A stretch of 64,000 nt of DNA from an uncultured virus (IMG/VR IMGVR_UViG_3300012665_000884). Its lineage: Duplodnaviria; Heunggongvirae; Uroviricota; Caudoviricetes. Shown here one piece after another: positions 4,799-58,175 of this stretch. The stretch is from IMG/VR virus record IMGVR_UViG_3300012665_000884; one strand, 5' to 3'. Within the stretch, counting starts at the first letter, position 1; each line of letters begins with the position of its first letter. Both the position numbers and the translations under genes were made by a program. The notes under the pieces are model-generated. The model made no database searches. It had not been told where the DNA came from and worked only from the letters and a program-made list of their open reading frames with translations.

Positions 4799-4829
4799 AA
4801 GGGGAGTCCGAAAGGGCTCCTCTTTTTTT
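4799..4829 (+). terminator. Rho-independent terminator after gp23
   Basis: GGGGAGTCC-GAAA-GGGCTCCTC followed by T7. Confidence 0.9.
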
Positions 4830-22218: not shown

Positions 22219-22635
22219 ATGAATGATAAAACTGATATTTTTCGTGGCGTAGGCATAGAGATTACTCTGAAAGAACAAGATGACTTCCTGAAAGTCCGTG
22301 AAACCTTAACTAGAATTGGTGTCTCTTCTAGAAAAGAAAAGATGTTGTATCAATCATGCCACATTTTACATAAACAAGGAAGATACGCAATTCTGCATTT
22401 CAAAGAACTGTTTGCATTAGATGGTAAACCATCCAATATCTCAGACAATGACATTGAAAGACGTAACGCTATTGCAAAACTTTTGGAAGAATGGGGTTTA
22501 GTTAAGATTGTGAATCCCGATGTGATAGGTGAGTTGATTGCTCCATTGCATCAGATTAAGATTATTGCTTTCCGTGAGAAAGATGACTGGCAGTTGGTCA
22601 GTAAGTATAACATTGGTAAGAAGCCACAAGAATAA
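22219..22635 (+). CDS. regA: Translational repressor RegA
   Basis: DDFLKVRETLTRIG, LYQSCHILHKQGRY, HFKELFALDG, KYNIG. Confidence 0.97.
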   Translation: MNDKTDIFRGVGIEITLKEQDDFLKVRETLTRIGVSSRKEKMLYQSCHILHKQGRYAILHFKELFALDGKPSNISDNDIERRNAIAKLLEEWGLVKIVNPDVIGELIAPLHQIKIIAFREKDDWQLVSKYNIGKKPQE

Positions 22636-22644
22636 TGAGATTAC

Positions 22645-22833
22645 ATGATGAAAAAAGTGAAAGAAGAAATTACAAAACTAAAGAACATCTACACGGGTGA
22701 AACTGTGTTGACTAGCAACTTGTTTGAGAAAAGAGTTGAGAGTACAATGACATTCATTCAGGTGTATACCGAGGAAAATCCTAATAGAAAATACTTTGTG
22801 AATGGTGAAGCATTCATAAAAGTTGCTAAATAA
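22645..22833 (+). CDS. Hypothetical protein
   Basis: 62 aa ORF after regA. Confidence 0.55.
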   Translation: MMKKVKEEITKLKNIYTGETVLTSNLFEKRVESTMTFIQVYTEENPNRKYFVNGEAFIKVAK

Positions 22834-22837
22834 GATT

Positions 22838-23093
22838 AACACCCTCGGGATGGGAAACTAGGAGACGGCATGCCTAGTAAAATAATGACCGTCAAAATTA
22901 TGGCTGGATGCGGAATGTCTTCGGAGTTTTGCCATTCAGTTTTTCGAACCCACCTTAGGGCTGTTTGACGCTACGGTATAAGGCGTCCGAGCAATTGAAC
23001 TGCCATTCGTTAATTGGCGCTGGATAAAGTAACCAGCACTGCTATGCCATTTTGGGTAGCATAATTTTAACTTGCTTTAATTAGGAGAACTAT
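22838..23093 (+). ncRNA. Structured hsp20 leader / candidate ncRNA with two H-type pseudoknots and several hairpins
   Basis: Longest clear non-coding gap, GC-richer than flanks; stems identified by eye; CTAAATA late-promoter variant at 22826-22832. Confidence 0.6.
23071..23087 (+). promoter_or_regulatory. ROSE-like RNA thermometer hairpin over the hsp20 SD
   Basis: CTTGCT-ttaatt-AGGAG: U(U/C)GCU pairs with SD leaving a bulged G; 6 nt before ATG. Confidence 0.65.
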
Positions 23094-23573
23094 ATGACAT
23101 TACATAACCCACGTGTTCAATTCGGACAATTACTTCCATCGACTGTTGGTTTCGACCACTTCTTTGATGCGATTGAAACTCTGTCTGCTGACAAATACAC
23201 TTCAACATTTCCACCACACAACATAGTTAAGATTGACGAAAATAATTATCTGGTTGAGTTGGCTATCGCTGGCTTTTCCGATGATGATATCTCAATTGAG
23301 GTTGTTAAGAATCAACTGGAAATTTCTGGTAAGAAGACTGATAAAGATGAGAATCGTTCTTATTTGCATCATGGTATCGGTACCCGTTCTTTCAAGAAAA
23401 CAGTCCACATGGCTGACACGGTTCAGGTAAAAGGAGCGTCCCTATCGGACGGTATTTTAACCATTGAACTGGAGAACATCGTACCAGAGGAAAACTTGCC
23501 AAAACGCATTCCAATCGTTTCTGGCGGTAAGAAGAAAGTATTACCAAGTAAGACGGAACTCTTACAAGAATAA
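23094..23573 (+). CDS. hsp20: Small heat-shock protein Hsp20 (IbpA-like)
   Basis: FPPHNIVK, ELAIAGF, YLHHGIGTRSF, DGILTIELENIVPE. Confidence 0.95.
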   Translation: MTLHNPRVQFGQLLPSTVGFDHFFDAIETLSADKYTSTFPPHNIVKIDENNYLVELAIAGFSDDDISIEVVKNQLEISGKKTDKDENRSYLHHGIGTRSFKKTVHMADTVQVKGASLSDGILTIELENIVPEENLPKRIPIVSGGKKKVLPSKTELLQE

Positions 23574-23576
23574 TGC

Positions 23577-23605
23577 TTGACGAACCTGCCTTTTTGGTGT
23601 ATAAT
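23577..23605 (+). promoter_or_regulatory. Sigma70-type promoter within inverted repeat
   Basis: TTGACG-17 nt-TATAAT; arms 23586-23596 and 23611-23621. Confidence 0.7.
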
Positions 23606-25338: not shown

Positions 25339-25412
25339 AGCGGATTAGTGAAACGGTATCACAAAGGACTCATAATCCTTAGTTCCAGGTTCGAATCCTG
25401 GGTCCGCAACCA
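25339..25412 (+). tRNA. tRNA with CAT anticodon (Met; Ile2 not excluded)
   Basis: Cloverleaf: GCGGAT/GTCCGC acceptor, GTGA/TCAC D stem, AAGGA-CTCATAA-TCCTT, CCAGG-TTCGAAT-CCTGG, encoded CCA. Confidence 0.93.
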
Positions 25413-57563: not shown

Positions 57564-58175
57564 ATGTTTAAAGAAACTATGGAAACACTAAGGGTACAAC
57601 GATGGGATGACCACAGGTACTATCACCACAGTCGTATCAACCAATCATTACATTTTTTGTCGTCAATCAGTTTTATGATTGCATACATTTATTTGTTTAT
57701 TGATCCTGTGGTATCAGCATATATTGGATGGTTGGTTGCTATGATGAGTAGACAAGCAGGTCATTTCTTTTTTGAACCAAAAGACTATGACACATATAAT
57801 AGTGCAACACAAGAATATAAAGAAGAAATTAAGATTGGGTATAATCTAAATCGTAAACGTGTGCTAATGGCACTATTCGTAGCAGTACCTATTCTTGCCG
57901 TATTTGATTTGGAGTTTATGAATTATCTTGTACCAGAACAAAATACAGAGACATTTTTGAATCGTGTTGGTATTTGTTGGTTGTGGTTAGGTGTTGGTGC
58001 AATTCTGTTTAGAATGGCACAATTAACAATCAAACAAAGTTTCAAAACTGCTTATGTTTGGTGTATCAAGATTTTGACCGATCCGTTTCATGACTTTATG
58101 ATTTACAGAAAAGCACCATTGTATTTGATGAAAGGTCAATTAATTGATCCTGATCTAAAAAAAGATTACGAATAA
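57564..58175 (+). CDS. Multi-TM membrane protein, Mpo1/DUF962-like
   Basis: YHHSRINQSLH ... RQAGHFFFEPK His pattern and TM segments. Confidence 0.55.
   Translation: MFKETMETLRVQRWDDHRYYHHSRINQSLHFLSSISFMIAYIYLFIDPVVSAYIGWLVAMMSRQAGHFFFEPKDYDTYNSATQEYKEEIKIGYNLNRKRVLMALFVAVPILAVFDLEFMNYLVPEQNTETFLNRVGICWLWLGVGAILFRMAQLTIKQSFKTAYVWCIKILTDPFHDFMIYRKAPLYLMKGQLIDPDLKKDYE

Follow-up and report, generated by a model that had tools for sequence, protein, structure and literature searches.

The window analysed here, a stretch of 64,000 nucleotides, comes from an uncultured T4-like phage. Its plus strand carries in succession regA, a 62-aa ORF and hsp20, which encodes a small heat-shock protein (Table 1). 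The 62-aa ORF has no match among Pfam or PHROGs families, and its 3′ end can be aligned in relatives. Among cultured phages, the nearest Hsp20 found is that of Pelagibacter phage HTVC008M, which is 43% identical to the Hsp20 of the window. The 62-aa ORF and hsp20 are separated by a gap of 260 nt, most of which (22838–23040) had been proposed in a sequence-only reading to be a structured RNA with tandem H-type pseudoknots and hairpins, starting just after a variant of a late promoter. That starting point holds: the candidate site at 22825–33 aligns with the TATAAATA-type sites of relatives, and the same CTAAATA variant is found at the same place in other leaders. The region is the upstream two thirds of an hsp20 5′ leader of ~255 nt that runs from the late-promoter-like site. 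As had been noted, it contains no long ORF; none of 30 aa or more is present except a 32-aa ORF on the plus strand (22870–22968), which begins inside PK1, extends into the core and has a Shine–Dalgarno-like site 5 bases upstream. We rejected this ORF as a gene: it is absent from relatives and belongs to no Pfam or PHROGs family. Two further features lie on the plus strand beyond hsp20, namely a near-consensus sigma-70-type promoter-like site directly 3′ of the stop codon (23577–23605; 11 of 12 matches, 17-nt spacer) and a tRNA-Met gene 1.8 kb 3′ of hsp20 (25339–25412).

Table 1 Genes and RNA features at the hsp20 locus of the window
Feature	Position	Strand	Remarks
regA (translational repressor), upstream gene	22219–22635	+	ORF; DNA ~69% identical to annotated cyanomyovirus regA
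62-aa ORF	22645–22833	+	Stop codon overlaps the promoter-like site
Late-promoter-like site, candidate	22825–22833	+	Aligns column by column with TATAAATA-type sites of relatives
5′ hairpin	22842–22855	+	Pairing read by eye; at the predicted late-transcript start
Conserved nine-base G-rich motif	22847–22855	+	Once in the window (exact match)
PK1, H-type pseudoknot	22857–22893	+	Stems 22857–62/22873–78 and 22864–68/22889–93; A-rich third loop
Long irregular hairpin with U run, lineage-specific insert	22902–22944	+	Predicted fold −13.8 kcal/mol; hairpin 22902–22941 with four-base loop, U run 22940–44
Core	22949–23037	+	H0, PK2, PK3 and capping hairpin
H0 hairpin	22949–22960	+	3 bp, invariant six-base loop; 99.3% paired; no two-sided change
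PK2	22961–22987	+	Stem 1 22961–64/22973–76; stem 2 22967–72/22982–87
PK3, newly found	22988–23018	+	Stem 1 22988–91/23006–09; stem 2 23002–05/23015–18
Capping hairpin Hc	23019–23037	+	5 bp, conserved nine-base loop; 99.1% paired; two-sided change in 4 of 5 pairs
ROSE-like hairpin I	23040–23061	+	Unpaired G at 23046; two-sided change in all six main pairs
ROSE-like hairpin II	23071–23087	+	U(U/C)GCU anti-Shine–Dalgarno 23072–76, G23074 unpaired; Shine–Dalgarno site 23083–87
hsp20 (small heat-shock protein)	23094–23573	+	Pfam HSP20, 63.1 bits

Comparison with relatives indicates that the gap before hsp20 is a genuine conserved folded RNA, built of separately conserved modules. In 5′ to 3′ order these are the 5′ hairpin, an optional pseudoknot (PK1), a hairpin with a U run that is confined to one lineage, a core of ~95 nt and a ROSE-like element. 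Every pairing listed in the sequence-only reading can be read directly from the sequence where it had been placed. A fold of 267 nt has a predicted free energy of −74.2 kcal/mol (z = −1.76), and 12 of 200 shuffled sequences fold equally well; because this single-sequence fold is weak, the case rests on relatives. We collected these through their Hsp20 protein (90 loci) or RegA (80 loci), through a sequence word conserved at the ribosome site and through a 20-base pattern of the core; a single metagenome scan added few further variants. The covariation check that had been suggested came out in favour of a conserved structured RNA with tandem H-type pseudoknots: compensatory changes are present in the relatives, and the observed pairing is reached by none of 500 shuffles, both for PK1 and for the core. 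The core fold contains many G–U pairs, and we infer from these that the fold exists only on the plus strand, the strand of hsp20.

The statement that no known family could be assigned by eye is matched by database searches. Nothing among the 4227 families of Rfam 15 matches 22838–23037, whether at the gathering score or with E relaxed to 10, and the pseudoknot part of the leaders of L002–L004 is likewise without an Rfam family. The sole match at the gathering score in the whole window is tRNA. When the 260-nt leader was searched by blastn in 50,697 phage records, seven were returned, all of them with short chance matches (E ≥ 0.2), and a blast of the leader against the window gave no second copy. 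In the full-text literature (with subscription journals and supplements outside its scope), we found no phage hsp20 described as having a thermometer or a structured leader, and no description of the leader pseudoknots; a 2024 review, in its accessible part, merely speculates that viral RNAs could sense conditions in such a manner (PMC10884466).

A putative RNA thermometer at the hsp20 ribosome site

The sequence-only reading ended at 23040, and just beyond lies a ROSE-like element (23040–23087), in the 5′ UTR directly before the Pfam HSP20 gene and with the Shine–Dalgarno site in its 3′-most hairpin. From its sequence and from modelling, it is a putative two-hairpin RNA thermometer of the ROSE-like type, which would mask the ribosome site of hsp20. 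ROSE_3 (RF02523) is the sole Rfam family that matches near the leader, at 23038–23099, with 22.6 bits against a threshold of 43 (E = 0.027 in a search of 701 nt). The same family matches at the same place in three of nine relatives at E up to 1 (L005, 32.9 bits; L002, 27.2 bits; L003, 25.0 bits), so that the scores in the window and relatives (22.6–32.9 bits) all stay below the gathering score.

An alignment of 86 distinct regions upstream of hsp20 contains the two hairpins. In this alignment, 87.7% of cells are paired compared to 78.0% in shuffles, with 108 compensatory cells compared to 32.3, and none of 500 shuffles reaches the observed values. Hairpin II is 94–99% paired, and its sole variation is a U or C opposite a G (UG in 61 sequences, CG in 25). 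The anti-Shine–Dalgarno columns are invariant or nearly so across the 86 sequences, the variable position being either U or C.

We built a covariance model of the element (R1) from 65 of 85 prepared sequences; the 20 left out mostly have a longer upper stem in hairpin I, and L006, which is without hairpin I, had been excluded before the model was built. R1 scores 61.8 bits on the element of the window. It matches 79 of 80 phage hsp20 loci, always ending at the start codon, and the 80th locus has no upstream DNA. The R1 alignment is 95.5% paired, a value that leans towards structure because the alignment was fitted to the model, and contains 152 compensatory cells compared to 36. R1 also matches directly before hsp20 in all six cultured phages tested, which are cyanophages and pelagiphages: S-CRM01 (L197, 45.5 bits), Syn9 (L196, 43.4 bits), P-SSM2 (L199, 42.6 bits), S-PM2 (L195, 37.2 bits), HTVC008M (L194, 28.9 bits) and HTVC115P (L198, 28.1 bits). 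Two weak R1 matches elsewhere in the window were rejected, one at 4802 being a terminator hairpin by a late promoter and the other at 57740 lying in coding sequence. As for promoters, a T4-type late promoter precedes the ROSE-like element in L071, L074, L081, L085, L086 and others, and a sigma-70-like promoter precedes it in L038, L040, L051 and others; both types are located a few bases 5′ of hairpin I.

For hairpin II, the predicted free energy rises from −4.2 kcal/mol at 5 °C through −1.4 kcal/mol at 25 °C to +0.2 kcal/mol at 37 °C. The predicted mean pairing of the Shine–Dalgarno site falls gradually, from 0.75 at 5 °C to 0.54 at 37 °C. Hairpin II is thus predicted to be a marginal helix that weakens as the temperature rises.

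The closest known counterparts are the Pseudomonas ibpA thermometers. The accessible part of their description reports two hairpins in 61–62 nt, a U(U/C)GCU anti-Shine–Dalgarno sequence, a G opposite the Shine–Dalgarno site, a U–G pair and a free start codon (PMC3669281). Measured against that part, the phage element resembles this ROSE_3 type in its location in the 5′ UTR of a small heat-shock gene, in its two hairpins within ~55 nt, and in hairpin I, whose conserved upper stem is similar and which likewise contains an unpaired G. It further shares the imperfect pairing of the Shine–Dalgarno site with U(U/C)GCU, including the G opposite that site and the U–G pair, and it also leaves the start codon free. 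In contrast to the Pseudomonas elements, it is encoded by a phage and preceded by a late-type or sigma-70-type phage promoter, its ROSE_3 score is below the threshold, and in the lineage of the window ~200 nt of pseudoknotted RNA lie upstream, which are absent in Pseudomonas.

Pseudoknot modules upstream of the ROSE-like element

The 5′ hairpin occupies the place just after the promoter-like site in leaders that bear PK1. When the 64 distinct sequence contexts 5′ of the core are compared, 23 have the conserved G-rich motif, which is almost without variation in an alignment of 20 leaders. Both stems that had been proposed for PK1 are located where they had been placed, and both covary in these 20 leaders, with two-sided changes in five of the six pairs of stem 1 and four of the five pairs of stem 2. 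In the PK1 alignment, 78.1% of cells are paired; the value for shuffles is 60.3%, none of 500 shuffles reaches the observed pairing, and slid controls give at most 51%. Compensatory cells number 36, compared to 14.1 in shuffles. These values refer to hand-picked leaders: near-duplicates, two leaders that have long inserts and five in which stem 1 is shifted or has five pairs were left out, and three to four rows are out of register after MAFFT.

A second line of evidence comes from the complementarity of the PK1 loop to downstream sequence. When compared to shuffles, it reaches p < 0.05 in six of eight lineages (p = 0.18 and 0.27 in the other two), with p = 0.0015 for the window and a Fisher combination over seven lineages of p = 6e-7. 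In 17 of the 23 motif-bearing contexts, all six pairs of stem 1 are intact at the expected position, and the loop of stem 1 is complementary to sequence beyond the A-rich spacer. PK1 is missing from 41 of the 64 contexts. The core starts ~6 nt 3′ of a TATAAATA-type site in most of these; in ~10 there is no TATAAATA-type site, and the core follows directly after the upstream stop codon. As judged from these comparisons, PK1 is a real but optional module.

The core was followed with a 20-base pattern, which matched at least 120 viral contigs; 80 of these were fetched and gave 56 distinct sequences. Our alignment of 47 sequences consists of the window, 44 distinct sequences, L003 and L046; L279 (which is nearly the window itself), L244 and L245 were left out. 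In this alignment, 98.8% of cells are paired compared to 86.6% in shuffles (none of 500 reaches it) and at most 43% when slid, and 132 cells are compensatory compared to 40.6 in shuffles. The same structure is 97.0% paired in 11 close leaders. The constancy of core columns 10–29 is no evidence, because these columns are fixed by the search pattern. The stretch of H0 is partly fixed in the same way, and its stems are different in short-form leaders.

PK2 lies where the sequence-only reading had drawn it, and its loops of 2, 0 and 4 nt also agree; the two stems fare differently. Stem 2 changes in a compensatory manner. It is 97.9% paired among the 47 sequences, where its changes are mostly one-sided, and it takes nine different stem sequences among 13 more distant leaders. 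Stem 1, for which an outer pair 22960/22977 can also be read from the sequence, is 99.5% paired, and all of its changes are one-sided (UG in 30 sequences, CG in 17; n = 47). When compared to shuffles leader by leader, stem 1 reaches p < 0.05 in four of 13 leaders (p = 0.07 in the window), and its third pair, read by eye in short-form leaders, is U–A, U–G or C–G. An extra hairpin of ~20–25 nt or a much longer insert is located in the third loop of PK2 in L219, L220, L263, L244 and L245, which fits this segment being a tolerant loop.

The third pseudoknot of the core, PK3, had been missed. Its stem 1 covaries, with the alignment pair 74/93 being UA in 20 sequences, AU in 13, GC in nine and GU in five, and all four pairs of its stem 2 show two-sided change (n = 47). 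PK3 clashes with the stem that had been proposed for 22992–97/23011–16. That stem finds no support: it is 85.1% paired compared to 85.4% in shuffles, and 348 of 500 shuffles reach the observed value. The last proposed stem, 23019–23/23033–37, is present and covaries; it forms the capping hairpin. Compensatory change is thus found in both stems of PK1 and of PK3, and in stem 2 of PK2. Other leaders have a shorter form of the core without PK3. Two additional contacts, a loop–loop pairing between H0 and the capping hairpin and a pairing of the H0 loop with the Shine–Dalgarno site, were sought by eye and rejected, as neither is conserved across leaders.

The loops and joints of the core are nearly invariant among its covarying stems. 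In L004, the DNA of the core is nearly identical to that of the window, and the Hsp20 protein is just 58% identical. A mere stabilizer would not be expected to require a near-invariant core, far better conserved than Hsp20; such conservation suggests a specific partner.

Surroundings of the core

A covariance model of the core, R2, matches the window once (113.8 bits). With a limit of E = 0.1, it gives 11 matches in the 80 RegA loci, of which four are strong, and none in the six cultured phages. Of 56 distinct cores, 53 have a ROSE element and an ORF directly behind them, and three have neither a ROSE element nor hsp20. Instead of a ROSE element, a promoter-like site or a different gene lies behind the core in L206, L226 and L241. 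Where a recognisable ORF lies behind the core (73 loci), it encodes an Hsp20 variant at 64, as judged by eye from the N-termini rather than by Pfam, and at the other nine a protein of 71–74 aa without a Pfam or PHROGs family. Examples of a core-plus-ROSE leader before the latter protein are L227 (4–222, minus strand), L230, L210, L222, L277 and others. The linker between the core and the thermometer is variable in both length and sequence.

In a freshwater metatranscriptome, one contig corresponds to 22959–23100 of the window. Three other contigs share only ~22947–23041 or 22981–23038 with it and diverge on both sides. Since these contigs carry only the 3′ part of the core in other surroundings, the core can exist apart from the thermometer. 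The contigs of this RNA library attest to the presence of 22947–23100 and 23520–23600 of the window. In 185,579 species genomes, the core pattern occurs in three contigs only, all from metagenome bins: L320, L321 and L322, labelled Bacillota, Thiobacillus and Hyphomonadaceae. These are probably phage contigs that were binned with bacteria.

Interpretation and comparison with known systems

Our main reading, to which we give an even chance of being right, is that 22838–23093 is a structured 5′ leader of hsp20 on the plus strand, in which protective pseudoknot modules are combined with a temperature-switched ROSE element. At low temperature, hairpin II of the ROSE element would hide the Shine–Dalgarno site. 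Warming would melt this weak hairpin and allow ribosomes to start, and Hsp20 would be made in proportion to temperature. The pseudoknot modules would form a compact, stably folded 5′ domain. It is known that 5′-terminal structures slow 5′-end-dependent decay, and for four-hairpin ROSE elements the upstream hairpins have been proposed to have a comparable shielding or insulating role. Our best guess for the pseudoknots is stabilization or insulation of the leader: the 5′ domain may shield the message from decay that depends on its 5′ end, and it may stop upstream sequence from mispairing with the thermometer. Several findings count against this reading, namely cores without a thermometer, cultured phages with a thermometer but without a core, the gradual predicted opening of the Shine–Dalgarno site, the sub-threshold ROSE_3 score, the z value of the single-sequence fold and the near-invariant loops of the core.

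The near-invariant loops and the cores without a thermometer keep two rivals alive. In the first, a sensor or operator would be formed by the core, alone or together with PK1; it would bind a small molecule or a protein of the phage or host and give hsp20 a second input besides temperature. We consider this unlikely, if well worth weighing. Nearly invariant loops and joints amid covarying stems are the usual look of an aptamer or protein-binding site, the chain of pseudoknots is compact with middle loops of zero length, an hsp20 variant lies behind the core at most loci, and the core is more conserved than the protein encoded behind it. However, the riboswitch option of the sequence-only reading finds no counterpart in Rfam, as no riboswitch family matches even at E up to 10. 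Inspection by eye also yielded no alternative pairing between the core and the ROSE element that could serve as an expression platform, and both the variable linker and the occurrence of cores without a thermometer count against this rival.

On the second rival view, the core would be a small RNA unit in its own right, acting as a stable RNA or a processing signal or cleaving itself, that is merely parked before hsp20 and released from the late transcript. This is an improbable account. It would fit the promoter-like site or other gene behind the core in L206, L226 and L241, as well as the RNA-library contigs that carry only ~22981–23038 in other surroundings. Against it, a ROSE element and an ORF directly follow nearly all distinct cores, no Rfam ribozyme family matches, and among the matches listed no tRNA gene lies within 350–400 nt of the core at any of 83 loci, all with window-type cores.

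Attenuation, also among the earlier suggestions, centres on the U-run hairpin between PK1 and the core. Here, the hairpin (22902–22944) would stop transcripts coming from regA or from the late promoter, with PK1 modulating the outcome; the evidence leaves this very little room. The feature itself is present, a 40-nt hairpin followed by five U residues, and among near-identical relatives a single U-to-C change converts a G–U pair to G–C and strengthens it. Yet the hairpin is found in the window and three near-identical records (L001, L020 and L279) and in none of the other leaders read. Because it is limited to the lineage of the window, it cannot be a general mechanism, and the conserved modules would go unexplained. 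Moreover, its stem is irregular and rich in G–U pairs, a terminator scan made no call at 22902–44, and PK1 is present in many leaders that have no U-run hairpin.

Type III antitoxin RNAs of the ToxI kind consist of tandem direct repeats beside an endoribonuclease toxin gene. That the leader is chance complementarity or, as had also been suggested, a small RNA mimicking such an antitoxin has a negligible probability and is refuted: the unexceptional single-sequence fold speaks for it, but all modules covary, and the antitoxin idea fails because there is neither a tandem repeat in 22600–23300 nor a toxin-like neighbour (regA, the 62-aa ORF and hsp20).

Compared to bacterial thermometers, the main reading of a protected, temperature-switched leader has partial precedents. 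One account, in its accessible part, assigns thermometers of the ROSE type to small heat-shock genes of bacteria and gives the ROSE-like element of Anabaena an additional extended hairpin (PMC4166951). The four-hairpin rhizobial elements and the Anabaena element resemble the phage leader in carrying a thermometer hairpin at the 3′ end of a more extended leader; the structures upstream of that hairpin are believed to aid folding or to make tertiary contacts (PMC4166951). The upstream part of the phage leader differs in consisting of three pseudoknots with nearly invariant loops, in being modular and in its ability to occur without the thermometer. Another precedent is the message of phage T4 gene 32, which has an autoregulatory pseudoknot at its 5′ end. 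Compared by description, that pseudoknot is likewise of the H-type, near the 5′ end of a message and from a T4-like phage. It belongs to a different gene, however; for the leader of the window there is no known binding protein, and this leader has no unstructured A/U-rich run up to the ribosome site.

Given a bacterial-type ROSE device before nearly every phage hsp20 sampled, including those of cultured cyanophages and pelagiphages, abundant aquatic viruses would, if the main reading is true, tune a chaperone to the water temperature by means of RNA alone. A bolder proposal, which we regard as possible but somewhat doubtful, is that the core at 22949–23037 represents a new autonomous RNA class of aquatic T4-like phages, either a sensor of a ligand or protein or a released stable or catalytic RNA. 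Such a core would be portable and would have been joined secondarily to a captured thermometer of the bacterial type, with PK1 as a second independent module of the same toolkit. Like the orphan RNA motifs from phages and metagenomes in Rfam, the pseudoknotted domain was discovered by comparison in uncultured phage DNA; it differs from them in that none of the Rfam 15 families matches 22838–23037. The domain is widespread, covaries strongly and has no relative among catalogued RNAs. It is a promising candidate for a new RNA fold, regulatory or stabilizing, and its small size suits structure determination.
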